A DNA stretch of 63,958 nt, the filler included, from Reclinomonas americana ATCC 50394 (Eukaryota), in the NCBI GenBank assembly GCA_048213135.1. It is 7 parts of 3 records of this genome, joined end to end, with 100 filler letters (N's around TTAATTAATTAA, not from the genome) between each part and the next. Parts side by side here need not be neighbours in the genome. Positions count along the whole stretch, not along the records: positions 9,215 to 24,978 come from PS015169.1; 6 more parts are not named here. One strand, given 5' to 3'. Made by a program: the position numbers and the translations under genes. The notes beneath the pieces were generated by a model. It searched no databases and had not been told where the DNA came from. It was given only the letters and a program-made list of their open reading frames with translations. Below, one piece after another: positions 4,204 to 62,748 of the stretch. The stretch's first letter is position 1; every line of letters begins with the position of its first letter.

Positions 4204-5240
4204 ATGGCGTCGAGATCCAACTCGGCCAAGAGCAATGGATCGAGCAACGCCTATCTCGTGAAGGGTGGGATGCACACACACACTCACTCACTCACACACA
4301 ACGAAGCTCACACACACCTGCGTTGTTTCTCTCTCTGTGCTCTGTGTGTATCTCTCTTCCTCCTCTCTCTTGTGTGTGTGCGTGCGTGAATCAGTGGTGC
4401 TGCTTGGCGACAAGGCCGTCGGCAAGAGCTCATTGTTGTTGAGATACACGCGGAATGAGTTCAATCTGGAGTCACGCATGACCATTGGCGTTGAGTTCTC
4501 CACCAAGGAGGTGGTGTTGGCGAGTGGCTTGCGAGTGTCGGTGCAGCTGTGGGATACCGCTGGACAGGAGAGGTTTCGCTCAATCAGTCAATTGTTGCGT
4601 CGCGTGCCCTCCATCACCACACACACAACGAAGCACGTATGCTTTCCTTGAGAGAGCACAGTGTTGTTGGAGCTCCTCCTCCTCCTCTACCTTGTCTCCC
4701 TCGTCCGTTCACTCGCTGTATGTGTGTGTGTGTCGCACAGTTATTACAATGGAGCCAAGGGCGCGATGTTGGTGTACGACATATCAAACGCGGAGACCTT
4801 TGTCAACGTGCAGTACTGGCTGGAGGAGCTCAAGGCCAAGAGTTCACAAATGCCCGTGTGCCTCCTGGTCGGCAACAAGGTCTTTCCTCATTCATCGTAC
4901 TCGATCGCTTGTTGCTCTTCTTGTTGCTCACTCCCTGCACACACAGAACGACCTGGAGCACCTGCGCGAAGTACCTACGTCTGAGGGAGCGGCACTGGCA
5001 CGACGCGAGGGCTTCATGTTTATCGAGGCCTCGGCGCTGGCCAGTGCCAATGTGGAGCTGGCGTTCACCCACCTCCTGGAGGAGGTGATGTCGAGAGAGA
5101 CCACGCGGAAACTGAATCGCAGCGGTGACAGCGATGCCGGTGACGAGGGCGCACAAGGCGGCGCAGAGACACCGACCAGGGTCGACTTGTCGCGACGTAA
5201 CACACTCGAAATACCAAGGCCCAAAAAACCATGTTGTTGA
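4204..5240 (+). CDS. Rab GTPase, Rab11-like (4 exons)
   Basis: KVVLLGDKAVGKS, TIGVEF, QLWDTAGQERFRSI, YYNGAKGAMLVYD, GNKNDLEHLREV, FIEASA and a C-terminal CC prenylation motif. Confidence 0.92.
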
Positions 5241-5360: not shown

Positions 5361-7181
5361 ATGGCAACGCAGCAACACCCCTCGCCCTCATCGCCCTCGT
5401 CTGAGGCGGAGGACGATGTGAGTCTTGGCCCACTGCCAGCCTCGTGCTTGCAATACGTCTTTGCGTTCCTCGTGGTCGAGGACTTGGAGCGACAGTGGAC
5501 CACCAGTCGAGCATTCTGCAAGGCGTTTGGTGCGACAACAGAGAGCACGCGTCTCTATGCTCTCCCTCCTCTCTCTCTCTCTCATGCAGCCCTCCCTCTC
5601 CCGCACAGAGCGATTTGTCGGCTGTGTCCGCATTCGCGGATTTCAGGCGGCTGCAGTGCTGTCGCGCGGACTCGACTTGTTCCCCCGTCTGTGCAACATT
5701 GAGCTGAAGGATGCCGATCTGCCGGCACAAGGCGCAGCGGCGGTGATCTGTCGAGTGTTGCGTGAGCGGCCTCTGCTCACGCACTTGTCGTTGAAACGTG
5801 CGTCATTGTGTCACAAGAGAAGCGAGTTGTCTCTCGTCGGCTGATGGTGACTGGCTGCGTGCAGACGTGGAGCTGCAGGACGAGTTCATGGCGTCGATTG
5901 CGGAGGGCCTGGTGGCGAACACGAGTCTGGTGGTGTTGCGACTGGAGAGTTGCGCGTCGCCGCTCTCCTGCGAGAGTGCAAGCGGAACACTGACGACGCT
6001 TTTTTTCTTTGCCATACGCACAGGCAACCGCATTGGCTGCGATGGCGCCGAGGTGTTGGCCACCAGCCTCGAGCAGCATCCGTGCCTGAGAGTGCTCTCG
6101 TTGCAGGGCAATCGCGTTGGTGAGCGCGGGGTGGCGGCCCTCGGCAAGCAGGTGCTGGCGCGTGTGCACAGTGTCAATCTGCAGTCGAATCGTCTGGGTG
6201 CTGGTGGTGCCGCCAACATTGCTGCGTCTCTTGTGCAACACGCGCGAGGTTCATTACGTTCCATCAATCTGTGTGGATGCCGTCTGGAGAATGCCGGCGT
6301 GGAGCACTTGGCGGCTGCGCTGCGCGTCAACAGCACACTCACCTCGTTGAATGTGCAATCGAATCGCCTCACGGACGCCTCGGCGCTGGTGCTCTCCGAC
6401 GCCCTCTGCAGCAACCAGGCGGTACGAAAGCTGGACCTCTTCTGGAACGGCATCACGGCAGAGGGTGCGCGGCACTTGGCGCACCTGCTCACGCGACCCG
6501 GCTCGTGTCTCGAGTACCTGAATCTGGCGCGGAACAAGATCGGGCCACTCGGTGCGAGGGCACTGGCCGAGGCGCTTGTGGACAAGCACTGCGTCCTCCA
6601 AGTGCTGCATTTGGCCTCCAACGACATTGGCGCCGGCGAAGGCTGTGAGGCGCTGTGCGACGCCCTGCGCGCCAACCCCGTTCTGCAGCACCTGCACGTT
6701 CCTGGCAATCGATGTATGTTGTCTCTTTCTGCCGGGCCGCTGAAAAGAAGCAGCTCAACTCGTGATCATGCGCAGTTGGCGACCAGGGAATGCTTCAGGT
6801 GGCCGAGGCTCTGACGCACAACACGCATCTCGAGTCAATCAGTCTGCAGTCGAACGGCATCAGCGACGAGTGCGCGGAGCAGGTGGCGAACACGTGGACA
6901 AGTGCCATGGGTGAGGTCGTTGCCGGCGATGGACTCGTGCTGCACTTGCGGCGTCTGCGGTTGCAGAGTGCGTATCCATCCACACGCCCCCCACTCCCTT
7001 TCACCTCCTCATCACCGCCTCACTTCTCGGTCGTGCAGGCAACCAGCTGACGCCTGTCGGAGTGGATCTGATTGCTCGAGCGTGCAACGCGCCGACTTCA
7101 CGCTGCTCCTTCGATCTCGACCCCGCAGCGGCGACGTCGTTCGGTGCCGATGCCATCGACGCGACAGACGACCACGAATAA
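5361..7181 (+). CDS. F-box-like + ribonuclease-inhibitor-type LRR protein
   Basis: N-terminal LPASCLQYVFAFLVVEDL resembles an F-box. Many LxxLxLxxNxIgxxGaxxLa repeats follow. Introns restore the frames, with the stop TAA at 7179-7181. Confidence 0.8.
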
Positions 7182-9106: not shown

Positions 9107-9158
9107 GTACGCGCNNNNNNNNNNNNNNNNNNNNNNNNNNNNNNNNNNNNNNNNNNNN

Positions 9159-9170
9159 TTAATTAATTAA
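9159..9170. other. Artificial scaffold linker TTAATTAATTAA (also at 25023, 33918, 52596, 57777, 62793)
   Basis: An identical six-frame-stop 12-mer flanked by 44 N on each side. Confidence 0.97.
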
Positions 9171-9214
9171 NNNNNNNNNNNNNNNNNNNNNNNNNNNNNN
9201 NNNNNNNNNNNNNN

Positions 9215-9685: not shown

Positions 9686-9802
9686 ACCACACCTTCTTCG
9701 CTCACAGAGACACAAGAGAGAGCGAGATTGATGATTGGTCACATCGATCCGTCCGTCTTCGTCGTGTTTATTAATAGTGCGGATCGGAGAGTTGTCTTTG
9801 TG

Positions 9803-11024
9803 ATGAACGCGTCGGTGCTGGAGGATCTGAGCGAGTTCGCCGTGCATCACAACCTGCGCCTGTTGCGTAAGCGTGTGGGCGAGTGGATCCGATCGGGCGA
9901 CGAGGAAGCATCCGCGTGGAGCGATGAGGAGGTGGAGGCGATCCTCAGAGATCGCGATCGCGTGGCGGCGAGACTGGCGGCGATGCCGCGAGAGGCGTGC
10001 GTGTTGGTGACGACAGGTACGTTGTGTGGGGTGTGATGTGTGTGTGTATGCGTCTCTGTGGTGCCGACGAGCCAACAGGATCGTTCTGCCCGCCGCATCG
10101 GAGCCATTTCAAGGTTGGTGTGCGTCGTCTGTCGTCCACTGACAACTCCCGCTGACGGTAGACGCAGTTGTTTCGTGCGGCCAAGAAGCACTTGGAGGCG
10201 GAGCCGCGCAACCTGCACGTGCTGGCCGGACTGATGTCGCCGAGTCATGATGTGTACACGTCGTCGAAGCTGCGGCACGAACGCGGTCACATTCCGTCGA
10301 TGCATCGCTTGCGCATGCTGCAACGGGCGCTCGATGGTGAAGAGGAGCTGGCCGACCTGCGCGAGTGGGTCACGGTGGATCCGTGGGAGTCGTGTCAGGA
10401 GGGTTTCGTCAACTTTCCCAGCGTGGTGCGCCACCTGCAGGCGGAAATCGACGAAATGTTCCCCGGGCTGCGCACACTCTACCTGTGTGGGGAGGATCTG
10501 TGTCGCAACTGCAACCTCTGGTTCTATCCGTTGCGTGGGGGGTGGAGATGGGCCCGCAAAGAATGTCGTGTCAAGGTAATAATATCTTTGTCGCGTGGCA
10601 GGCACGTGGTGTGTGTTCGTCGACGCGAGTCGGATGCAGACGGTGATGATGACGACGATGACGATGACGACGACGACGACGACTTCTACCGCCAGAGGAG
10701 AAAGGTGCCGGCCAACACCAAGTGTTACGTGGTGGACGCGGACCACGCCGAACCCGACACGCTGAGCAGCACCACAGTTCGGAATCGCGTTCGCCAAGTT
10801 GCGTGGCTCCTGTATCACCAATGCTGCTGGGAATGCACTCACCAGTGTGATCCTCTCCCGTGTGCGCAGGGTTGGTTATCGCAGCTGCAGAGATTCCAAC
10901 ACATCTGCTTCCTTGTTCTGACTCCTACACAGGCAAGGGCGTGTCGCACATCACCTTTCCGTCCGTCGAAGAGTACTTGGTCGAACATCAGCTGCTGACC
11001 TCGTCGAGACGGCATGACAAGTAA
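9803..11024 (+). CDS. NMNAT/NadD-like cytidylyltransferase-superfamily nucleotidyltransferase (includes a 1-nt exon at 10870)
   Basis: VTTGSFCPPHRSH (HxGH-like), SPSHDVY, HRLRML, VDPWES, YLCGEDL, HVVCVRR and LSSTTVRNRVRQGKGVSHITFPSVEEYLVEHQL. The start may instead be the upstream ATG at 9731. Confidence 0.85.
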
Positions 11025-11126: not shown

Positions 11127-12488
11127 TCACCGCAGCTCCACGTGCAGTCGGTCGCGAGTGAGACACCGCACGTCCTCCTGGATGTCGTCGACCTCCTCGT
11201 TGGTCATGCTCCGTTCCATGCTGCGGTATGTGATGCGGTAGCACAGGCTGCGACGGCCAGTCTTCGGGTGTTTAAAGTCGTCGATGCGCTTGACAGTTTC
11301 CACCAGGTCACCGGCACGTTCGCGCACCAACTCCATGAGGTCGTTCTCCACAAACGGCGCCGCGGCACTCTCCCAGAAACTCATGTCCTTGAAACATGGC
11401 GGGTACTTGCTGAAGGGTCGGAACTTGACAATCTCGCCACGACGGAATTGCGAGGTGAATCGCTCGTCTGCGCACATACTCAGCAAAGGCGAGGCAGGAT
11501 GAGGGGTGCTGTCACCGGCGCCTCACCATCAGACCAAAACAGACGAATGTCGGTGATCTCGAACAGAATCATGGCCAGTCGATCAAGACCGAGACCAAAG
11601 GCCCAGCCGTTGTCGCGGTCGGGTACGCCACACTGCTGCAAAATCTTGCGTGCCACCACGCCACACCCCAGCACCTCCATCCACTTGTCGTTGTAGTAGA
11701 TCTCCAACTCCAACGACGGATCCGTGAACGGGAAGTACGCCTCCACCCAGCGCATCTCCACGTTGCCAAACAGACTGCGCGTCACCGACTCGAGACGCGC
11801 CTTCAAATCGGCCTCCACCAGTGCCGTGGCCACTGGAGCGTCGGGTGAACTTCCGGGCAACTCGCCCGGTGAAAAGATCCGCACACCCTCCATCTGGTGA
11901 AACACCGGGTAGTGATGGCTGTCGACTTCGTCGCGGCGGTACACATCGCCGGAGCACAAAAAGGCACGATGACCGGCACGAATCAACTGCGACAGCAGAG
12001 GGAGGTCAGCGCAAGAGTGTGTGGCGAAGGGGAGACGGGCCAACCTGATTCTGATGTGCCGATGTGTGCGTGCGCAGCAGTGTCTGCGAGTCGTAGTAGT
12101 ATGTGTCGTGAGGCGATCGACTGACGTGGTCGGTGGGGATGAGCAGCTCGTCAAAGTTCTGCTGCACGGTCACCCGAGGCGGCAGCGAGTCGGCAAACTG
12201 TGCATGCATGCAGGCATGCGACAAATGTCAATCATCAGCATGCACAAAATGCATGCATTCTGCACACACACACACACACACACGCGCGCGCGCAACGTGG
12301 TACACGCCGGGAAACGCTTGCTCAAACTGCTTCTCAATGTGCCGCTTGATGATGCCAATGGGATGTGCGGGCAGTCGGTGCAGTGAGCGACCGACTTTGG
12401 CCTGCACGGAGGCTGGAATGTTGCAGGTGATGGTGCTGGCAGTGGGTGCGTTGGACAGCCATGCCCGCGAGATGCGTGTGCTCCACAT
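11127..12488 (-). CDS. FARS2: Mitochondrial phenylalanyl-tRNA synthetase
   Basis: [86 protein letters not shown] and the C-terminal FDX-ACB domain ([14 protein letters not shown]). Confidence 0.95.
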
Positions 12489-20826: not shown

Positions 20827-22568
20827 ATGGAGCTGTCGGTGCTTGACTTGCCGCCTCAAGTGCGCGCGCGTCTGCAGGCAGCAGGGTTTCAGAGTGTGGA
20901 GGATCTGCGGTGTGTGTCCTCTTTTGTGCACTCTCTCTCTGTGTGCACTCTGACTGTCGTGTGTTGCAGCAATGTCAGTGCGCGAGATGTGGCGAAAGGT
21001 GTGTGTGTGTGAGAGAAGAACAAGTAGAGAGAGAAGAGCAAGAAAGAGAGAAGAAGAAGGAGAGAAGAAGGAGAGGAGAGAAGAGAGAGAGAGAGAGATC
21101 AACGCTCACCGTGCCTTGCCTGCGTGATGGGGACTGCTCACTGTCTCTGTTCTATGTGTGTGCAGAGTCGGGCGTCAACATGCGACAGGCGCAGAGTGTG
21201 GTGAGTGCTGTGGCGACTGTGCTTGGCACGGTGACAGCAGCCGCTGCTCCATCGGCTGCGTCGGAGAGTGGAAGTGGGTCGGCGTTGTTTGGCACCAGTG
21301 CGTTGGAGTTGTTTGAGGTGAGCTCGTGGAGAGAGAAGGAGACAATGCATTGATGATGATGATTTTCGTCGCGTGTGCCAGAGGCAGAAGAGCCGCAACC
21401 CCATCATCACCTTCTGCAAGGAGCTTGATGATATGCTTGGTGGCGGTGTGCAGTTGGCCAGTGTCACCGAATTCTGTTGCGTTGTGCTTCTCCTTTGTGC
21501 ATCGCCTTCTGTGCATCGCTCATAATGGAGCAGGCGGCATTCCCGGCATTGGCAAGACACAGCTGGCCATTCAGCTGGCTGTCAACGTGTGCATTCCGGC
21601 CGCCTTTGGTGGCGTCGAAGGAGAGGCCGTGTACATTGGTTTGTGTACAAGGGCGCGTTTGTGTTGGTGTGGCAGTTGTCTAAACGTGGCGATGCAGACA
21701 CCGAGGGCAGCTTCACTGTCGACCGCTGCGAGGAGATGGCGACGGTCGTGGTGAAGCACTTGCGCAGTGTTCGTGCACGGTCACCGCAAATCCAGGTGCG
21801 TCGCTTCCATCCCTTGCTTTCTTGTCGTTCCCGCGTGCCGATCCGCGCCGCGCCAGATCACGGACGAGGAGTTTGAGAGCAAGTGCAACGTCGACCACAT
21901 CCTCGGCAGCATCCACTACTTTCGCGTGCACGACCATGCCGAACAGGTATATACAAGGAGTCTTTTCCCCTGCTTCACTGTTTCCTTGTCTCACCACCTC
22001 GGCGACCCAGATTGCCACCATCAACACCCTGGCGCATTTCATCGCCACCCGTGCGCCGCGCGTCAAGCTGGTGGTGCTCGACTCCATCACCTTTCACTTT
22101 CGACACGAGTTCTCCAACTTTTCCGCACGCTCGCGTCTCCTGCACGGCATTGCACAGTCGCTCTCCGAGTTGGCCAACGAGCGCGAACTGGCCGCCGTCA
22201 TTATCAATCAGGTGGCGTCGCGCTGTTGCTTTTTGCGTCACCCACCTCTGTGCCTCACCCTCATCATTGCACGTCTCCCGCAGGTCACCACACGCTTCCT
22301 CTCCGCCACATCGGCGCCGTATCTCGCACCCGCCTTGGGTGAGAGTTGGGCGCACGCCACCACGCACCGTGTGGTGCTCTCCTTTGCGGAGGGCGCGCAC
22401 GACGACGAGGGTGGCGTGCTCGCTTCCGCGAGCGTGCGCACAAGGCGGGCCGAGTTGCACAAGAGCCCCTCGCAGGCCGCCGGTGTCGCCAGATACGTGG
22501 TCACCAGTGATGGAATCCGCGGTGTCTCGTCAGCTGCCGCTAGAAGAGAAGGCAGTGGTGGGTCATGA
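20827..22568 (+). CDS. RAD51C: DNA repair protein RAD51 paralog C
   Basis: [85 protein letters not shown] and [10 protein letters not shown]. Confidence 0.93.
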
Positions 22569-24690: not shown

Positions 24691-25103
24691 ATGAAAGAGA
24701 AACTGTGGGACAACTTGGCTCTCATAGGCTCCTCCCATTCTACACTCTCGTGCAGTTGAATTAACATGGGAGAGGGAGGCGCATATGAGGAGGAGAGGAG
24801 AAAAAAACAAGAGAGAGAAAAAGTGAGGGAGACAACTGCACTGTGCAGTTGCAAGTCTCTCTCGATTGCTGCGCGGGAAAATGGTAAAGGAATAAGCAGC
24901 GAACTGGTAAAGGAGGGTTGTGTGTCTGGGCGTAACAAACAAACAAACAAAAAAACAAAAAAAGCGGCGGGGCGGAAGNNNNNNNNNNNNNNNNNNNNNN
25001 NNNNNNNNNNNNNNNNNNNNNNTTAATTAATTAANNNNNNNNNNNNNNNNNNNNNNNNNNNNNNNNNNNNNNNNNNNNTGTTTTTTTAGGTCCGCGGAGA
25101 TGC

Positions 25104-31991: not shown

Positions 31992-34179
31992 TCATGATGA
32001 TTTCGCTGCCTTTTGCGCGGCATCGCTGTCGGCCTTGGCTTTCCGCACGTGCTTCACGATGCGATCGGCAATCTCCTCGGCGTTGAAGTTCTTGCCAAAG
32101 TAGTCGATGAAGCGGCCGTCGGGGCCCATGAAGTACATGATGATCGAGTGGTCGATCAGGAAGTCCTGTATGTAAGTGTGGTGAGCACAACGGAGAACTG
32201 GGGAATTAACGGGGAGACGCAACATTGGTCTTCACATCTTCGTCGGCGGGGATGCTAAAGTAGACACGGTAGGCCTTGGTGACGCTCTTCAGTTCCTCCA
32301 TGGTGCCGGTGAGACCGACCATGCGCGGGTGATAACCTGCACACGAGTGTCACCACCACTCGTCTCGCGCACCATCGGATTGCGAGGAAGGACGCAACGA
32401 GTGACGTAATCCTTGACACGTTCGGGGGTGTCGCGCACGGGGTCCACGCTGATAAACACCGGCTGTACCACGGGTCCAATGGTGGCATCCACGCGGTCAA
32501 TGACATGTCGCATCTTGTTCATTTCGGCGGGGCAAATGTCGGGGCATGCCGCTGGTCAAGGAAAAAGGGGAAGGGAGAGGGAAGAGGGGAAGGGTTAGGG
32601 GGCAAGAGAAAGGAGAAGGCGATGGGGGAAGGAGAAGGGGGAAGGAGAAGGGGAAGGAGAAGGGGAAGGAGAAGGGGGAAGGAGAAGGAGAAGATGAAGG
32701 AGAAGAAGGAGGAGGAAGGGGAAAGAACAAGAACAAAACAAGAAAGAGTAAAGAAGAACAAAAACCAAGAACAAGAAAAAGACAGAGAAGGAGAAAGAGA
32801 ATGAGAAACATGCACGAGAATGCACAGGAGAGAATGAGCAAGGGGCANNNNNNNNNNNNNNNNNNNNACCGAAGGGGGAAGACCGAAGGGGAAAGGAGAT
32901 GGGCAAGACGATGGGGGGAAGACCGAAGGGGGGAAGACGATGGGGGAAGACGATGAGGGGAAGACGGAAGGGGGAAGACGGAAGGGGGAAGACGGAAGGG
33001 GGGAAGACGGAAGGGGGAGACGGAAGGAGGGGAAGACGATTGGGGGAAGACGATGGGGGGAAGACGATGGGGGAAGACGATGGGGGGAAGACAGAAGGAG
33101 GAAGACAGAAGGAGGAAGACGGAAGGGGGAAGACCAAGGGAGGAGACAGAGGGCGGAAGACGGAGGGCGGAAGACGGAGAGCGGAACACGCAAGAGGAAG
33201 ACACAAGGAGAAGAAGCATGGGGAAGACGAAGGGGGCCGACAAAGGGGGGAGACAAAGGGGGAAGAACATGGGGGAGCCTGGGGGAAGACAGAAGCGAGA
33301 AGAGAAAGAGAAGAAGGCGATCGTGGAAGACGAAGGGGTGCAAGTGACTGTCGGTGCTCCTTCCCTCCCGGAGCAGCGCGCAACTAAAACCAAAGTAGAT
33401 CAGCGTGAAACGACCGTGAAAGTCCGTGTCAGTGCGTCGCTTGCCGTCTTGATCGATGAGCGAGAAGGCACCTCCGAGAGTCGGAGTTCCCACAGTCTCC
33501 ACCACAGCTGTCACACACAAGAGACTGTGAGCACACTGAGAGACACAGACACAGAGAGAAAGAGAGAGAGACGCAACCCTCTTGCTTCTTGCTCTCCTTC
33601 TCGTTCTGGAAGTACCAGTAGAGACCACCGCCAAGCACAGTCAGCGCGACAGCTTGCACAGTCACACCTCGCCAGTCAAATGCCTGTGAGAGAGAGAGAG
33701 AAGAGAGAATGAGAGACTGAGAGAGACTGCGAGAGGCAGAGAGAGGCAGAGAGAGAAAATGAGAGACAGCGTGAGAGAGAGAAGGGCAAGAGACAGAGTG
33801 AGAGACAGACAGACATCAGCGCGGAGTGAGGTGGAGAGTCAGAGAGGCAGAGAGAGAGAGAGAGAGAGAGAGANNNNNNNNNNNNNNNNNNNNNNNNNNN
33901 NNNNNNNNNNNNNNNNNTTAATTAATTAANNNNNNNNNNNNNNNNNNNNNNNNNNNNNNNNNNNNNNNNNNNNGAGAGAGAGAGAGAGAGAGAGAGCGCA
34001 CAGAGAGAGAAGAGACAACAGACCTTCCACGATGACTCCGAGGGCGGAGGCGGAGGAGGAGGTGATGAGTCAGGCGAGGAGGCAGAGGAAGACCATGCAC
34101 ATTGCATGCTGCTGAGTGGCGCCCACGGAGAGCGACGAGCCGCGCAGAGAGAACGAGTCACTTGTCGCAGCAGCAGCAT
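31992..34179 (-). CDS. SCO1: Cytochrome c oxidase copper chaperone SCO1/SCO2
   Basis: Presequence, TM segment, [28 protein letters not shown] (CxxxC), [20 protein letters not shown] and [13 protein letters not shown]. The gene spans the linker at 33918. Confidence 0.92.
32869..33300. repeat. Purine-rich 13-14-bp minisatellite (GGGGGAAGACG[GAA/AT]) in a SCO intron
   Basis: Direct tandem copies of gggggaagacggaa / gggggaagacgat are visible. Confidence 0.8.
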
Positions 34180-52540: not shown

Positions 52541-52651
52541 CTATGCACACANNNNNNNNNNNNNNNNNNNNNNNNNNNNNNNNNNNNNNNNNNNNTTAAT
52601 TAATTAANNNNNNNNNNNNNNNNNNNNNNNNNNNNNNNNNNNNNNNNNNNN

Positions 52652-55600
52652 GTCGGAATTCGGCGTCCCTCCGGCAGCGTCGGCGCATTGGACTCGGAGA
52701 GACCGAGTGACAGCATGTTGGTCGACAGCACAGTCATGTTGTCAGTGTAAAAGTTGACGTTCGGAATGCGGTAACCGGGGACATTGAACGGCGTCTGCTC
52801 GCCGAAGCTCGCACTGGTGTACGCCTTGAGGAGGAAATCATTTGAGTGAATTTCCACTGTTGCCACGCGGAGCGGTTCCGTGGCCACCACAGCTGCGGTC
52901 GACGGGTTGCCGATGCGGAAGCGGGTGGTGGTCAGGAAATCGACATTGTCGGTGTACCAGTAGACGTTGGGGATGCGGTTGTTGGCACCAAGAGCGTTGA
53001 CACCGAATGTGACGCTCGTGTAGGCTTCCACCAGAAGCTGATTGAGGTGGAACTCGACAAGCGGAATGCGCAGCGGCTCCACTGCCGACACTGGGTTCGG
53101 ATCGCGAACGCCGAATCGCAGTCGGTTCGTCGAAAACAGATCAAACTGGTCCGTGTACCAGCTCACGAGCGGTATGCGGTTGCCGTTGTTGGCGCCACCC
53201 GTGTTAAGAGCGTTGACGCCGAACGTGGCCGACGTGTAAGCCTGCGCAAGGAGGGAAGGGTAATGAGAGAGACACGAAGCCAACGACAGGTTAAGAGCGA
53301 GGGAGACGACACTTAAATACACACCGTCACCAAGAAATCGTTGCTGTAGATGGAAACGGTCGGCACCCGGTTCGGCTCGTTGGGTGGTGCGGTGAGCACA
53401 GCATTGGAGAAGCGACCGATTTGCACCGTGTCCGTGGCCAACAGCAGCCAGCGGTCCGTGTACGACTTGACGTCGGGGATGCGGTTGCCCGCACCCAGAG
53501 CATCGACGCCATATGTAACGCTGGTGTACGCCTCTAGCAGCAGATCGTTGACGTGTACTTGCATGGTCGGCACACGATTCGGCTCCACACCCGACGCGGG
53601 AATGACCGAATTGTCAGGGCGTCCAATGTACAACGTCTGAGACGCCAGCAAAAGGTAGTTGTCGGTGAACCACTGCACAGTCTTGATCCGATTGCTGTCG
53701 GTCTTGAGTGGAAGCCCGCTATTGATGTTGAGGTCGTCGACGCCGAAGCGGGCTGTGGTAAACACCTCCATGACAAAGTCGTTGGCATACATCGACAGTG
53801 ACCGGATGCGGTTCGGCTCAACGCCAGACACGGCAATCGCGCTCTTGTCCTGCCGACCCAATGTCATGGTTTGCGTGGCATACACGCTAAAGTTGTCGGT
53901 GAACCAGTTGACCGTCGGAATTCGATTGCCGTCAGTCGGATTGCCGGCGTTCTTGTTCAAACCATCGACGCCAAAGTTGGCGCTGGTGAACACCTCGACC
54001 AGCAGAGTGTTGGTGTGCAGTTGCGTCGCACCAATACGCAGCGGCTCAATGGCCGGAGTCGGAATGTCGACGTTAGACGGCTGACCCAGCTGCAGCGTCT
54101 GAGTGGCAAGCAGCTGGAAGTTGTCCGTGTACCAGTTGACATTAGGGAATGCGGTTGCTGTCGGTGGTGCCAATGATCCCGCTGTTCGTGTTGAGGGCGT
54201 TGTATCCAAAGTTGGCCGTCGAGAACACGTCCATCTGCAGCGTCGTCGTGTGCACCTCCGTCAGCGTGATGCGGTCGGGATCCACGCCACTGCCTGGTAC
54301 CGCTCCGGTGGCACGGCGGCCAAGCTGCACCTTCTGCGTCGCCAGCAGCAGGAAATTGTCCGTGTACCAGTTGACGTTTGGAATGCGGTTGCCGTCCACC
54401 NNNNNNNNNNNNNNNNNNNNNNNNNNNNNNNNNNNNNNNNNNNNNNNNNNNNNNNNNNNNNNNNNNNNNNNNNNNNNNNNNNNNNNNNNNNNNNNNNNNN
54501 NNNNNNNNNGTGTTGCCACCGTTGATGTTCAGCGCGTCCACGCCAAACGAGGCCGATGTAAAGGCTTCCAACAGGAACGTGTTGGCATGCATCTGCAGGA
54601 AGTTGATACGCAGAGGCTCCGGCGTCTGCAGCGGCGCATTTGATGGCAAACCAAACGACGCAGTTCCAGACGCCAGCAGCGTAAAGTCTGCAGCGTTGAT
54701 GGTCACAGACGGAACACGGCCAACGCCCGTGCCAGTCTGACCGATGGTGAGCGTGGCGTACGACAAAATGGTGATGTTGTCGGCGTGAATCTGGAAATCG
54801 TAGATGCGCAGCGGCTCAAAAGTGTTGGCGGGAATGGCCGCAACCGACGGCTGTCCGAGATACAGCTTCTGCGAGGCATACACGTAGAAGTTGTCCGTGT
54901 ACCACGTGGTGGTCGGGATGCGACTGCCGTCAGCGGGGCCGCCTGCGTTGGTGTTCAGAGGTGCGAATCCAAAAGTGGCGCTGGTGTAGGCCTGCATCTG
55001 GAAAGCGTCCGCGTTGATTTCGACAGTGGGCACACGGTTGTCGGCAGGCGCAGCCACCGACGACTGACGACCGATTCGCACTCGACTACTGGCCAGCAAC
55101 AAGAAATCATCCGTGTACCAGCTCACGTTCTGCACAAAACGTGAGTCAGGGCACGAACACACACGCAAACACACGTGCGCGGTGGCAACGCAACAGGAAT
55201 TCGATATCCGGCACCAAGAGTATCGAAACCAAAAGTGGCGGAAGCGTAGGCTCTCACAGAGAGCGTATCCACATGCACCTGCATGTCCGGAACACGGCTC
55301 TCTTCAAGCCCCGGAGCGAGCGTGGCAGTTGTCTTCAATCGACCAATGTAGAAAGTCTTGCTCGCCAGAATCTGGTAGTCGTCAGCGTACCACGCGACCG
55401 TTGGAATGCGGTTGCCGGCACCGATGGCGTCAACACCAAAGGTGGCTGAGGTGAATGCCTGTGTGTGCAGATCACGGTGAGCGGTGGGAATTCCTCTCTA
55501 TGACACACACACACTCTCTCTCAAACTGCGCCACACAAATCACTAACCTCTACCAACAGCGTATTCACGTGTACTTGCATGGTTGGGATGCGCAGTGGCT

Positions 55601-55754
55601 CAGGTGACACAATGGCAGCATTCGACGGCATACCAAGGAACAGCGAATTCGACGCCAGAATCAAAAAGTCGTCACTGTACCAGCTGACATTCTTGATGCG
55701 GTTGCTGTTACCCAAGGCACTGATACCAAAGTCCGCGCTCGTATACGCGTGCAT
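52652..55754 (-). CDS. Giant novel tandem-repeat protein (~70-aa NRIPxVxWYTD...EPLRI...AYTSAxFG units); fragment
   Basis: About 12 or more repeat units across spliced exons. There is a +1 frameshift at about 54145, and both ends are open. Confidence 0.75.
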
Positions 55755-55774
55755 NNNNNNNNNNNNNNNNNNNN

Positions 55775-57016
55775 TTGCACGCGTATACGAGCGCGGACTT
55801 TGGTATCAGTGCCTTGGGTAACAGTAACCGCATCAAGAATGTCAGCTGGTACAGTGACGACTTTTTGATTCTGGCGTCGAATTCGCTGTTCCTTGGTATG
55901 CCGTCGAATGCTGCCATTGTGTCACCTGAGCCACTGCGCATCCCAACCATGCAAGTACACGTGAATACGCTGTTGGTAGAGGTTAGTGATTTGTGTGGCG
56001 CAGTGTGAGAGAGAGTGTGTGTGTGTCATAGAGAGGAATTCCCACCGCTCACCGTGATCTGCACACACAGGCATTCACCTCAGCCACCTTTGGTGTTGAC
56101 GCCATCGGTGCCGGCAACCGCATTCCAACGGTCGCGTGGTACGCTGACGACTACCAGATTCTGGCGAGCAAAACTTTATACATTGGTCGATTGAAGACAA
56201 CTGCCACGCTCGCTCCGGGGCTTGAAGAGAGCCGTGTTCCGGACATGCAGGTGCATGTGGATACGCTCTCTGTGAGAGCCTACACCTCCGCCACTTTTGG
56301 TTTCGATACCCTTGGTGCCGGATATCGAATTCCTGTTGCGTTGCCGCGCACGTGTGTTTGCGTGTGTGTTCGTGCCCTGACTCACGTTTTGTGCAGAACG
56401 TGAGCTGGTACACGGATGATTTCTTGTTGCTGGCCAGTAGTCGAGTGCGAATCGGTCGTCAGTCGTCGGTGGCTGCGCCTGCCGACAACCGTGTGCCCAC
56501 TGTCGAAATCAACGCGGACGCTTTCCAAATGCAGGCCTACACCAGCGCCACTTTTGGATTCGCACCTCTGAACACCAACGCAGGCGGCCCCGCTGACGGC
56601 AGTCGCATCCCGACCACCACGTGGTACACGGACAACTTCTATGTGTATGCCTCGCAGAAGCTGTATCTCGGACAGCCATCAGTTGCGGCCATTCCCGCCA
56701 ACACGTTTGAGCCGCTGCGCATCTACGATTTCCAGATTCACGCCGACAACATCACCATTTTGTCGTACGCCACACTCGCCATCGGTCAGACTGGCACGGG
56801 CGTTGGCCGCGTTCCGTCTGTGACCATCAACGCTGCAGACTTTACGCTGCTGGCGTCTGGAACTGCGTCGTTTGGTTTGCCATCAAATGCGCCGCTGCAG
56901 ACGCCGGAGCCTCTGCGCATCAACTTCCTGCAGATGCATGCCAACACGTTCCTGTTGGAAGCCTTTACATCGGCCTCGTTTGGAGTGGACGCGCTGAACA
57001 TCAACGGTGGCAACAT
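55775..57016 (+). repeat. Near-identical inverted copy of 54530-55754 (same repeat-protein exons and introns)
   Basis: Reverse-complement match with scattered SNPs and a 3-bp intronic indel. Both copies have the same endpoints, and a 20-N gap lies at the centre. Confidence 0.9.
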
Positions 57017-58171: not shown

Positions 58172-61100
58172 TGCGTACCAGCACGTCAGCAGAGTTGCCG
58201 ACGAAAACAGAGCCGCGGGTTGCCGCAGTGCCACCCTGGATGTATACGGCGCCGCCCATTGTAATGGCGTCACCGCCGATGATGCGAACATTCCCGCCGG
58301 TGGCACCACCTGCGTTGAGCGCACCGACCAACCAGATTTCCCCGCCAGCCGCCGCCACAGTAGCAGTTCGTCGCAGTTTGAAAGTGGTGGTGTCTGCGGG
58401 TCCCAGGTTGAGCGTATCACCACCGCTGACGGCCAATTTGTTGGTCGCAGCCAGCACCAAATCGGCGTTCAGCTGCGCAGTGGTTGCATTCACGGTGACA
58501 GTCTGTGTCGCTGACTTGCCAATCACCACCTGCAGAACGAGAATTGGGGGGAGCAACAGTGAACACATAGAATACGTGATTGACAACGGGCGGGACAGTG
58601 AAACACACCTGTCGTCCCACAAGCGTGCCGATCAGCACACTGCCTTCGAGCGCGGTGCTGGACGCGGAACCGGCGTCAATAAACATGTCGCCGCCTTGCA
58701 GACCTGTAGCACCGCCCTGCCCGCTGAATCGTGTGTCGCTACCGGCGCTCGTGGTACTCGCTGGTCGAGCCAAGAACAGCGGAGCGGAACTGGAGCCCAG
58801 CGAAATCGTATTGCTGGTGGACTGCAGTGACAGGTCGGTGCTGGGAGTTGGTGAAATCACCGCAGGCGTCACCAGGCTCTGCCCACTGAACTGGAAGCCG
58901 TTGATGACATTCAACTGTGACACGAAGGTCGTGCGTTGAGCTACACGTTTGCAATCACATCGAGACACATAGGAAGGTTCGATACGCACCGTGCCGTCAA
59001 TAGTCACAGTCGTGCCTGCATTGCCCAGGTTCACGTACTGCGCCGACGAGGTGCCAATGGACACGCGATTGCTGGCGTCCATCTGCACATTGGTTCCACT
59101 GATACTGACCAGGCTCGTCTGGAAGGTCGAGGCACCGACATACACCGCTCCCGACGTGCCGGGATTGGCCGTCAGGGCGCCTTGCAGACGAATNNNNNNN
59201 NNNNNNNNNNNNNNNNNNNNNNNNNNNNNNNNNNNNNNNNNNNNNNNNNNNNNNNNNNNNNNNNNNNNNNNNNNNNNNNNNNNNNNNNNNNNNNNNNNNN
59301 NNNNNNNNNNNNNNNNNNNNNNNNNNNNNNNNNNNNNNNNNNNNNNNNNNNNNNNNNNNNNNNNNNNNNNNNNNNNNNNNNNNNNNNNNNNNNNNNNNNN
59401 NNNNNNNNNNNNNNNNNNNNNNNNNNNNNNNNNNNNNNNNNNNNNNNNNNNNNNNNNNNNNNNNNNNNNNNNNNNNNNNNNNNNNNNNNNNNNNNNNNNN
59501 NNNNNNNNNNNNNNNNNNNNNNNNNNNNNNNNNNNNNNNNNNNNNNNNNNNNNNNNNNNNNNNNNNNNNNNNNNNNNNNNNNNNNNNNNNNNNNNNNNNN
59601 NNNNNNNNNNNNNNNNNNNNNNNNNNNNNNNNNNNNNNNNNNNNNNNNNNNNNNNNNNNNNNNNNNNNNNNNNNNNNNNNNNNNNNNNNNNNNNNNNNNN
59701 NNNNNNNNNNNNNNNNNNNNNNNNNNNNNNNNNNNNNNNNNNNNNNNNNNNNNNNNNNNNNNNNNNNNNNNNNNNNNNNNNNNNNNNNNNNNNNNNNNNN
59801 NNNNNNNNNNNNNNNNNNNNNNNNNNNNNNNNNNNNNNNNNNNNNNNNNNNNNNNNNNNNNNNNNNNNNNNNNNNNNNNNNNNNNNNNNNNNNNNNNNNN
59901 NNNNNNNNNNNNNNNNNNNNNNNNNNNNNNNNNNNNNNNNNNNNNNNNNNNNNNNNNNNNNNNNNNNNNNNNNNNNNNNNNNNNNNNNNNNNNNNNNNNA
60001 GCACCGCCTGCACCACTGGCGGGCGCCGTCCGACCAATCACAAATTCGGCATTGTCGTTGGCACCCATGCGAATGGTGTTGCCCGATGACGCTAGCAAAT
60101 TGGCGAGCGTGACGGGAGAGGAGAAAGTGGTCGAGGAAGCGTTGACTTGAAGCGCGGCGGAGGCGCTGCCGAGCACGACTTGTTGTGCGTTGCTGACGCC
60201 AAGATAGAGGCTGCCGCCGCTTCCGCTGCCCTTTCCAGCGTCGACATACCTGCGAAGATCGGGTGTTGAAGAGTCAGCGAGAAATCTCATCAGAGAGCGA
60301 GAGCACGCAGACAGCAGCGCAACATGTCGCCTGCCACGAATCCGCCGGTGGTATCTTGGCCAAGAAGGCGTGTGGCAGCTGCGCTAACGTTGACGCGCGA
60401 TGGCCGCCGCAAAATAAAGTCAGCAGACGAGGAGGTGGTGCCAAGTAGAATGTTCGACGACTGCGGGGTGAGGCTGAGATCACCACCGCCAGACGTTGTA
60501 ATAATGGACGCGGTGAGCGAGCCGGTAATTGTTGCTCCGTTGGTTGCAGCGAGCTGTGGCCAGACACACTCCGGTCAGCTCGACCACGCACAATGATAGG
60601 GCGACAAACGCAACTGCTCCATCAACCACCACCGGAATGCCAGCACGACCGACATAGACACCAGTGGAAACCGAGGTGCCGAGACGCACTGCTCCGAGAG
60701 GCGATACATACACATCTGTAATGGCCTCGAGTGTCACCTGCGGTCAAGTGCATCAGGCTAACCGATACCACGACAAGATCAACCAGAAAAAAAGAAAAGA
60801 TAACTAACCGTCTGCGCATTTGTTGTTGAGCCTACAAACACAGAGCCGACGGTGCCAGCACCCACGGCTGGCGACGACGTCAGCCGGATGCTGCCGCCGT
60901 TGGTGGAGCCAAAGACCGGTGTCGGACGCGTCAGCACCAACTCCATGCCGTCCGTGTCGCCAAACATTACTTGATTGGACAGCGAGCGAATGGACGAGGT
61001 TGACGAGAGCGTCATGCCGCCGTTGACTTGGAGGGAGGATGAGGTGGCCACAGAGCCCACAAAGGTTGTGGCCGCACCCATAGTGATGGCACTAGTATTC

Positions 61101-62748
61101 AGCGTGCCAATCGAAATTCGTCCATGAGGACCTCCGCTGCCGGCATTCAGTAGCCTGTAGTACACAATCACAACGGGTGAGATGAGCAGCGGGAGTAAGA
61201 GATTCGGGAGACGGGGGAAAAGCGCAACAGATCGCCGCCCGCCGCCGTTCCATTGGGATTGTTCTGACCGGACAGCGTGGTCGACATGGCACCACCACTG
61301 CCAGCGTATGGCACTCGCGCAAATTCAAAGCCGGCCGAGCCCGAGCCAAATTGCACAACGTTACTGGCCGACGACACCAGCAACGACCCACTTGGAGCAA
61401 CCAGCGACGAGGTTTGTACGACCGAATTGACCAGCTGCAAAAACCAATAAAAGGGGGGCGTGAGACTGGGGTAAGTCCGCAAAGATCCACGCACGCGTGT
61501 ACGCAACGGCGCCCAGGATGGTGGTGGTCGACATGGCGGAGCCAATGGTGACAGTGGTCGCCGTGCCGCCAATGACTACAGTGCCTGCCGAATCCACCGT
61601 GGTTTGCACACGAGACAACGAATCAGTGCGATCCGTGTCGGTGAACGAGCCGAGCGTCAGCCTGCCATGAGAGGCGTTGCCGCGACCAGCACGAATGGTC
61701 AGGTCGGAACCGACTGTGCCGACGGCGGTTTGATCCGGGCGGCGCAGCACAAACGAGGCATCGGTGGGATTGCCGAGCATGAGCTGGAAGTGAAGAACTG
61801 ATGAGTGCGTGGAGAGAGAGAGAGCGTGAGAGAGCGAAATGACAACAAGGCGCGAACCTGAGTCGCAGATCCGACAACGGTCAGCGGCACATCGGCATTG
61901 AGTTGCACACTCGACCCGAACGTGACCGCCTGCGAAAACGAGGCCGACCGCGAGAACGCACTGGGTGCGTCGACCGCTACAGCGCCGGTAGCTACACCAA
62001 GTCGAATCTGCAGTGCGGTTGCGGGGGGCACGCGTGTGAGTCAGCATTCTGCGTGTGTCCAATCAGTGCACACGTGGCAACAAACCGTGCCCGCGGTGTT
62101 CACGGCCAGGCGTACTTCGCCCGTCGTGGTGCCCGCACCACCGTCAATCTCACTGTGAGTGGATGAGGGAAAAAAACGAAATGCGGTCAGCCACCAACGT
62201 GACGCGCTCAACAGCGGTAGGCCGTCATACGAAACATGGAGCCGCCGGCGCTGCCGATCGCACCCTGTCCAATGAAGCGTGTGGCAGTACCCGCCAAATT
62301 GTCGGTTCGTCCGGGGCGAGCCACGATAATTGGTGTCGTGGTGATGCCCAGCACAAGCTGATTGTTGGCAGGCTGCAAACTGATGCCAGACAGGGACGCC
62401 GAGGTCACCGTGGACACTTGTAGCGTACCGGGGACCTGTGTATACGATGCACGCAATGAGTGTACTGCACGATACTGTAGTGGCGGCGGCGGCGGCGGCG
62501 AATCAGCACACCTGCACAGAGTTGGACGCCGATGTTTCCAGCGAGAGTGGACCGCCGGTTGCCGACAGCGTCAACTTGGTTGTGCTGAGCGACAAACTCG
62601 CAGAGGACAGTGGCGTGGTCAGCTGCACCTTGGCAACGTGCACTGCAACAAGGAAGTGAGTAACACTCAAGCGCGGGCGCGCAGCAAAAAGCACAACACA
62701 CACGAACTTGAATCGGTGGTGGCGGCGGAGAAGACGGCATCATTGGAA
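57833..62748 (-). CDS. Giant G/S/T/V-rich beta-repeat (fibre/adhesin-like) protein; fragment, many introns
   Basis: The recurring module LG..P...RP....G....GQ....GG.(I/M).I(D/Q)(A/G)G....G.V.IG....V.IG spans GT-AG-bounded exons. No start or stop is seen. Confidence 0.72.

Follow-up and report, generated by a model that had tools for sequence, protein, structure and literature searches.

Can a single nucleotide serve as an exon? The question is raised by a gene of Reclinomonas americana ATCC 50394 within the stretch of DNA analysed here (63,958 nucleotides, filler included; hereafter the window). Towards its 3' end, what looks like one intron of 135 nt can be divided, base for base as an earlier note on this DNA had claimed, into stretches of 72 and 62 nt with the appearance of introns, on either side of one G at position 10870. 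This single base abuts an acceptor AG and a donor GT (CAG-G-GTTGGT at 10867-10876). The same note had claimed that skipping the G gives a non-homologous tail and that including it gives the conserved C-terminus of the protein family. Both statements hold: without any of the 135 nt the frame changes and translation stops at the end of a 22-residue tail, and frame and C-terminus are restored when G10870 is kept. We describe below the gene, the intron signals of the window and the fit of alternative splice products to the protein family, and then weigh the ways in which the locus may be read.

Gene model and protein family

The gene model was rebuilt from the window sequence and from homology. 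Its features are as follows.

9731..10016, plus strand: exon 1, with its ATG at 9731; from frame translation, the profile alignment starting at model residue 68
10017..10078, plus strand: intron 1, 62 nt, GTACGT...CAACAG; its excision leads to a gapless profile alignment over the TG/SF junction
10079..10113, plus strand: exon 2, 35 nt, encoding the GxFxPxHxxH nucleotidyltransferase motif; from translation and profile
10114..10167, plus strand: intron 2, 54 nt, GTTGGT...CTGAC...CGCAG; from signal pattern and profile
10168..10529, plus strand: exon 3, core of the adenylyltransferase domain; from homologue matches
10530..10601, plus strand: intron 3, 72 nt, donor GTTGCGTGG; from the profile, the donor being that of 10798 over 9 nt
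10602..10797, plus strand: exon 4, with a poly-Asp insert and the SSTxxR motif; last codon CAA (10795-10797)
10798..10869, plus strand: candidate intron 4a, 72 nt, GTTGCG...CTCAC...GCGCAG; from the enriched intron pattern and composition
10870..10870, plus strand: candidate 1-nt exon, G, the start of a Gly codon in the top splice model of 262
10871..10932, plus strand: candidate intron 4b, 62 nt, GTTGGT...CTGAC...ACACAG; from signal pattern and length
10933..11024, plus strand: exon 5, starting GCAAGG, with the conserved C-terminal helix region and a TAA stop at 11022-11024

Introns 1-3 (62, 54 and 72 nt, with donors GTACGT, GTTGGT and GTTGCG) each give a gapless alignment of the product to the profile. 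In the candidate mRNA, G10870 is the first base of the Gly codon, and positions 10933-10934 complete it. Exon 2 (10079-10113, plus strand) is another short exon flanked by short introns, and holds the whole catalytic GxFxPxHxxH motif within its 35 nt. Within exon 4, about 13 consecutive Asp residues (10630-10680, plus strand) are treated as an insert by the family profile.

Exon 3 alone matched 381 proteins at E<=0.001 in a representative protein library, the best at 52% identity; with this as the closest match, neither a close relative nor the organism's own annotated protein was found in that library, and a search among longer proteins gave no match. Scanned alone against Pfam, exon 3 hit CTP_transf_like (PF01467) weakly, at 13.3 bits (cut-off 21; E 0.096), and exons 4 and 5 scanned singly gave no Pfam matches. 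Four homologues that we looked up (P0002, P0003, P0004 and P0029) exceed the Pfam cut-off for CTP_transf_like. One of them, P0004, matches solved NMNAT structures at E 3e-22, and P0029, the sole one of the four to carry a name, is called nicotinate/nicotinamide nucleotide adenylyltransferase by its source. Both NMNAT-type motifs are present in the gene, GxFxPxHxxH in exon 2 and SSTxxR, of the SxTxxR type, in exon 4; in the latter, the two S and the R are invariant in all 100 profile homologues and the T is found in 96 of 100. Taken together, the two motifs, the Pfam-passing homologues, the name of P0029 and the structure matches of P0004 justify the label 'NMNAT-like' for the predicted gene. 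A metagenome scan for related DNA with a single protein yielded 136 pattern matches, with none confirmed; the single locus obtained from the scan with P0001 (L001) had a bacterial-looking, unrelated translation and was dropped.

The NMNAT-like gene converges with a neighbour on the minus strand (11127-12300) that encodes a phenylalanyl-tRNA synthetase alpha-type core (Pfam tRNA-synt_2d, E 2e-37). The 3' end of this neighbour lies about 100 nt from the NMNAT-like stop codon, with a (GA)n tract in between. Open frames at 4482-5237, 5795-6811 and 21684-22565 (plus strand) have Ras, leucine-rich-repeat and Rad51 Pfam matches respectively, which marks the window as gene-dense eukaryotic sequence.

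Many of the gaps in the window consist of [44N]TTAATTAATTAA[44N], a contig-joining linker with stops in all six frames (for example at 9115-9214, 24979-25078, 33874-33973 and 52552-52651). These linkers show that the window is a concatenated draft and not a continuous sequence. A different gap, of 20 Ns (55755-55774), lies in a region (55100-56430) whose flanks are near-perfect reverse complements reading outward from the gap, with 581 of 655 positions matching gaplessly. The same two introns occur there on both strands around the gap (55972-56070 and 55557-55459; 56335-56396 and 55194-55130). A genuine inverted repeat would explain this symmetry, as would a fold-back in the assembly.

Intron signals in the window

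Introns were characterised from the window itself. Discovery by joining open reading frames returned about 30,000 candidates in this GC-rich sequence and proved too noisy; signal patterns and shuffles were used instead. The pattern consisted of a donor hexamer, 20-70 nt, CTSAC, 3-30 nt and YAG, and was compared with 40 shuffles that kept base composition only, within 300-nt blocks. The donor hexamers were preselected and the pattern is self-defined, with a length ceiling of about 111 nt, so that longer introns fall outside its reach.

With GTTGCG as donor, the pattern occurs 26 times in the window against 1.95 +/- 1.6 in shuffles; the corresponding figures are 9 against 1.3 for GTTGGT, and 5 against 1.25 for GTACGT. 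The distance of CTSAC from GTTGCG sites provides a check that is independent of the full pattern: after the 72 such sites, 25 CTSAC motifs lie at 41-60 nt (13 and 12 in the two 10-nt bins), while most other bins hold 1-7. GTTGCG(T/C), with C at +5 in place of the usual G, thus appears to be the dominant 5' splice site, followed by GTTGGT and GTACGT. Examples among the pattern matches lie at 1108, 3351, 19334 and 47571 on the plus strand and at 61507, 32223 and 28125 on the minus strand. A full-text search of the literature for GTTGCG or GUUGCG as a splice donor, judged on titles and abstracts, gave no relevant paper among the matches listed.

The 40 signal-defined introns measure 50-99 nt (median 71), with the branch A placed 11-32 nt before the acceptor. 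Candidate introns 4a and 4b fall inside these local ranges, with lengths of 72 and 62 nt and CTSAC ending 45 and 52 nt from the donor. In 4a, CTCAC stands at 10838-10842, and its branch A (10841) is 28 nt upstream of the acceptor; in 4b, CTGAC stands at 10918-10922, and its branch A (10921) is 11 nt upstream. Both donors recur within the gene: 4a shares 9 nt of donor sequence with intron 3, and 4b shares its hexamer with intron 2. Of the 35 acceptors in the training introns, 34 are CAG, within a pattern that admitted only C or T at -3. On the exon side of the donor, the same introns carry at most 0.3 bit per position, the preceding base being T in 15 of 35 and G in 5 of 35. A 1-nt exon would then forfeit no recognition signal, and such low exon-side information fits a recognition that works across the intron only.

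Introns 4a and 4b are the sole adjacent pair among the 40 signal-defined introns in the window. From the shuffle counts, simple arithmetic gives a probability of about 4e-5, per position, that one of the three strong patterns begins there by chance, so an intron start exactly 2 nt past a given acceptor is more than chance would produce. A looser donor set, with 147 pattern hits, added one further and doubtful adjacent pair, at 4295-4167 on the minus strand in a CA-repeat region. We also considered an acceptor at 60250 (minus strand) that is followed by GTATGT, with an apparent zero-length exon, and rejected it: we read the site as a start codon, ATG, preceded by an intron in the 5' UTR.

Fit of splice products to the protein family

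Splice products were assembled by coordinates and scored against a homologue profile made from 100 of 150 homologues among the matches listed, of 190-420 residues and with an SST-type motif. The scores of the main models were the following.

1-nt exon model (G10870): 236.6 bits
Single 140-nt intron, AAG acceptor at 10937: 230.0 bits
95-nt intron ending at 10892: 223.7 bits
72 nt kept and 62-nt intron removed: 219.9 bits
All 135 nt skipped: 211.4 bits
Read-through: 209.6 bits

In an exhaustive set of 262 GT-AG models with 0-2 introns, each of at least 40 nt, the G10870 model came first (236.6 bits), and a model with T10846 as a 1-nt exon came second (233.3 bits). Keeping G10870 is required for the reading frame and the conserved C-terminus, at a cost of 25 bits when it is skipped.

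The spacing between the T of SST and a conserved Tyr was counted in 94 of the 100 homologues, the other 6 lacking one of these anchor residues. It is 23 in 57 of the 94, and 23 also in the G10870 model; other homologues have 22 (1), 24 (8), 25 (11) or 26-33 (17). Alternative models give spacings of 21, 36 or 47, which occur in none of the 94. In the column of the lone-G codon, Gly is the commonest residue (52 of 100 homologues), and the G10870 model encodes Gly. The spacing that the earlier note gives for the NMNAT C-terminus is correct, and its consensus holds: when P0004 is aligned to human-type NMNAT structures the same spacing is seen without gaps, and it is also that of the 57 of 94 homologues mentioned above.

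Alternative readings of the locus

The alternative that deserves most attention, unlikely as we hold it to be, is that only 10871-10932 is spliced, with 10798-10869 either translated, so that 24 residues would be inserted behind the SSTxxR helix, or kept in a considerable fraction of the transcripts. The length of the 72-nt stretch is divisible by three, no stop codon interrupts its frame, the sites used are canonical throughout, and some homologues have up to 10 extra residues in the same loop. An open frame of this kind means little, since 71 of 120 intron frames are stop-free in this genome. Retention costs 16.7 bits against the family profile, and its spacing of 47 exceeds the maximum of 33 across the 94 homologues. 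The stretch also carries a complete intron signal, of a pattern enriched about 13-fold over chance, and its interior 60 nt score -8.05 bits in a Markov comparison of coding with intron sequence, where intron pieces average -5.3 +/- 5.3 and just 5.2% of 77 coding pieces score as low. Cys, Trp and His would together make up 37.5% of the translated insert, compared with 9.2% of the coding sequence nearby. As a minor isoform, retention of 10798-10869 is conceivable. A single GT-AG intron of 140 nt (10798-10937), using an AAG acceptor five bases downstream, is a very unlikely competitor. Its product, two residues shorter, is in frame with the conserved tail intact and scores 230.0 bits, 6.6 below the best, but its spacing of 21 is found in 0 of 94 homologues, where the minimum is 22, in one. 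The intron would be about twice the local median length, its AAG acceptor is preceded by a good CAG, the form taken by 34 of 35 training acceptors (in a pattern open to C or T at -3), and a complete internal acceptor-plus-donor pair would be left unexplained. Removal of all 135 nt, with the G skipped or the gene decaying, would make use of an outer donor and an outer acceptor that are both strong sites. This reading is highly improbable, as it leads to the frameshifted 22-residue tail, with a loss of 25 bits and of the entire conserved C-terminal helix in a gene whose other motifs and junctions are all intact.

An error in the draft assembly, with one consensus base missing near an exon edge, would turn the locus into a real gene with an ordinary intron or another edge. 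With its 26 gaps and its linkers that carry stops in all six frames, the window is indeed a draft of low continuity. Such an error would, however, have to affect one particular base and coincide with a chance internal AG-G-GT with full signals (about 4e-5 per position); it would leave the precise tiling into two normal introns unexplained, and the frame is kept at the gene's other four exon junctions. We give it no better prospects than the 140-nt intron. A different micro-exon is slightly less likely still. Intron 4a contains a second such arrangement, AG-T-GT at 10844-10848 (plus strand), where T10846 is an in-frame 1-nt option between introns of 48 and 86 nt (10798-10845 and 10847-10932) with weak signals, and a 25-nt exon may also be drawn at 10846-10870 (introns 10798-10845 and 10871-10932). 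Both models are in frame and GT-AG, at 233.3 and 226.8 bits, yet both score below G10870. The 48-nt intron they share is shorter than the minimum of 50 among the 40 signal-defined introns and has its sole CTSAC 4 nt before the AG, and the donor GTGATC at 10847 lies outside the enriched donor types. Least probable of all is a single intron of 134 nt with one non-canonical boundary, either GT...CA (10798-10931) or TT...AG (10799-10932). Bases 10798, 10870 and 10932 are all G, and the resulting mature mRNA would be identical to that of the 1-nt exon model. The cDNA junction CGCCAA-G-GCAAGG is consequently the same for both. The 134-nt intron would nevertheless need a boundary other than GT or AG, would be twice the usual length, and would ignore two full internal sets of signals.

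In terms of signals, length, composition and homology, the earlier note's claim of an exon at G10870 with a complete intron on either side stands as the best-supported reading, with the amendment that the note had overlooked canonical alternatives. G10870 is a base flanked by AG and GT, it lies between introns of normal length with complete signals, and the frame needs it. We conclude that it is probably a 1-nt exon between two spliceosomal introns of 72 and 62 nt, the splicing being predicted from the genomic sequence.

Proposed splicing and origin of the layout

Under the 1-nt exon reading, 10798-10932 would comprise two independent introns, each recognised by its own donor, branch site and CAG acceptor. 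Most likely 4a and 4b would be removed one after the other, in either order, since the acceptor AG of 4a lies within three bases of the donor of 4b and two spliceosomes cannot plausibly fit there together; splicing factors at the 4a acceptor would overlap those at the 4b donor. Either order of removal would regenerate a usable site, in a process that would resemble recursive splicing with the difference that one base is left. The resulting mRNA would read CAA, G, GC..., giving Gln-Gly-Lys followed by a normal C-terminus of the NMNAT family. As the lone G begins the Gly codon of the loop after SSTxxR, the C-terminal helix of the enzyme would depend on it.

How may such a layout arise? The likeliest origin, as we infer it, is the gain of an intron a single base from an older one. 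This is suggested by both halves being full-size and by the absence of similarity between the halves or to the rest of the window: a search for introner-like copies of 4a or 4b with blastn-short against the window gave only matches of <=15 nt.

The earlier note went further and proposed intron definition throughout the organism with essentially no minimum exon size. This is plausible in view of the exon side of the donor, with its <=0.3 bit, and as a generalisation it extends from one case in one window. We would give a slight preference to the broader proposal that G10870 is a constitutive exon in a eukaryote that relies mainly on GTTGCG(T/C) as its 5' splice site, has a nearly uninformative exon side and chooses its splice sites by purely intronic signals.

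Comparison with known systems

The closest parallel is CYP621A of Fusarium, where a validated AG-G-GT 1-nt exon lies in a '139-nt intron', more than twice the median of 56 nt (PMC12940212); it is backed by 18 SRA reads and conserved across 24 genes (PMC12940212). The two cases share the AG-G-GT arrangement, a lone G in a Gly codon of a conserved motif and an organism with short introns, and both were inferred from a phase mismatch and homology within an apparent intron of double length (PMC12940212). Unlike CYP621A, which encodes a P450, our candidate lies in an NMNAT-like gene, has GTTGCG and GTTGGT donors, and is predicted from genomic sequence and homology.

In Arabidopsis, a constitutive 1-nt exon of APC11 was proven by base mutation and cDNA reading (PMC4674806), and 1-nt microexons of APC11 and VPS55 occur across land plants (PMC8831610). 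As in these genes, the base of our candidate is needed for the reading frame (PMC4674806, PMC8831610). The APC11 authors propose intron definition with one-by-one removal of introns (PMC4674806). The plant exon of APC11 differs in being an A and in lying between much longer introns, at 333 nt within a stretch of 422 nt. The long-read annotation of Coprinopsis cinerea, a short-intron and intron-rich genome like the one considered here, lists 13 exons of 1 nt, 57 of 2 nt and 27 of 3 nt (PMC12230235), counts which suggest that 1-nt exons recur where introns are short. With 13 in Coprinopsis alone, the description of such exons as 'extremely rare' in the earlier note was overstated (PMC12230235). 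That catalogue differs from our case in being genome-wide and built from full-length transcripts, and the accessible part of the report makes no link to NMNAT or GTTGCG (PMC12230235). A phrase search for single- or one-nucleotide exons found none in an NMNAT gene among the matches listed. This kind of exon is thus already documented in plants and fungi, and the NMNAT-like case is probably a further example of it.

Two other arrangements of closely spaced splice sites were considered and rejected for this locus. At a ratchet point no base remains in the mRNA, and the introns divided in this way are very long, whereas G10870 stands between AG and GT as a base predicted to stay in the mRNA, and both halves have the size of ordinary short introns. 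What the locus would have in common with the ratchet points of recursive splicing in Drosophila is an acceptor and a donor side by side within an intron, with stepwise removal (PMC8605326). With fungal stwintrons it would share two spliceosomal introns in direct contact that are removed in sequence (PMC5587772). The inner intron of a stwintron splits one of the splice signals of the outer intron (PMC5587772), whereas the donor, branch motif and acceptor of both 4a and 4b are intact and non-overlapping before splicing.

Implications

If G10870 is indeed an exon, gene finders will mis-predict the NMNAT-like gene, with either a frameshifted tail or a 24-residue insert, and the same error may be expected at any other 'intron' of roughly double the usual length. 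Another lineage and another gene family would join the few documented cases of 1-nt exons, and introns gained one base apart would be seen to remain functional. The case would also support the view that exons have no lower size limit where short introns are recognised from inside. Far from being a plant or fungal curiosity, one-nucleotide exons would then arise regularly as a consequence of densely placed short introns.
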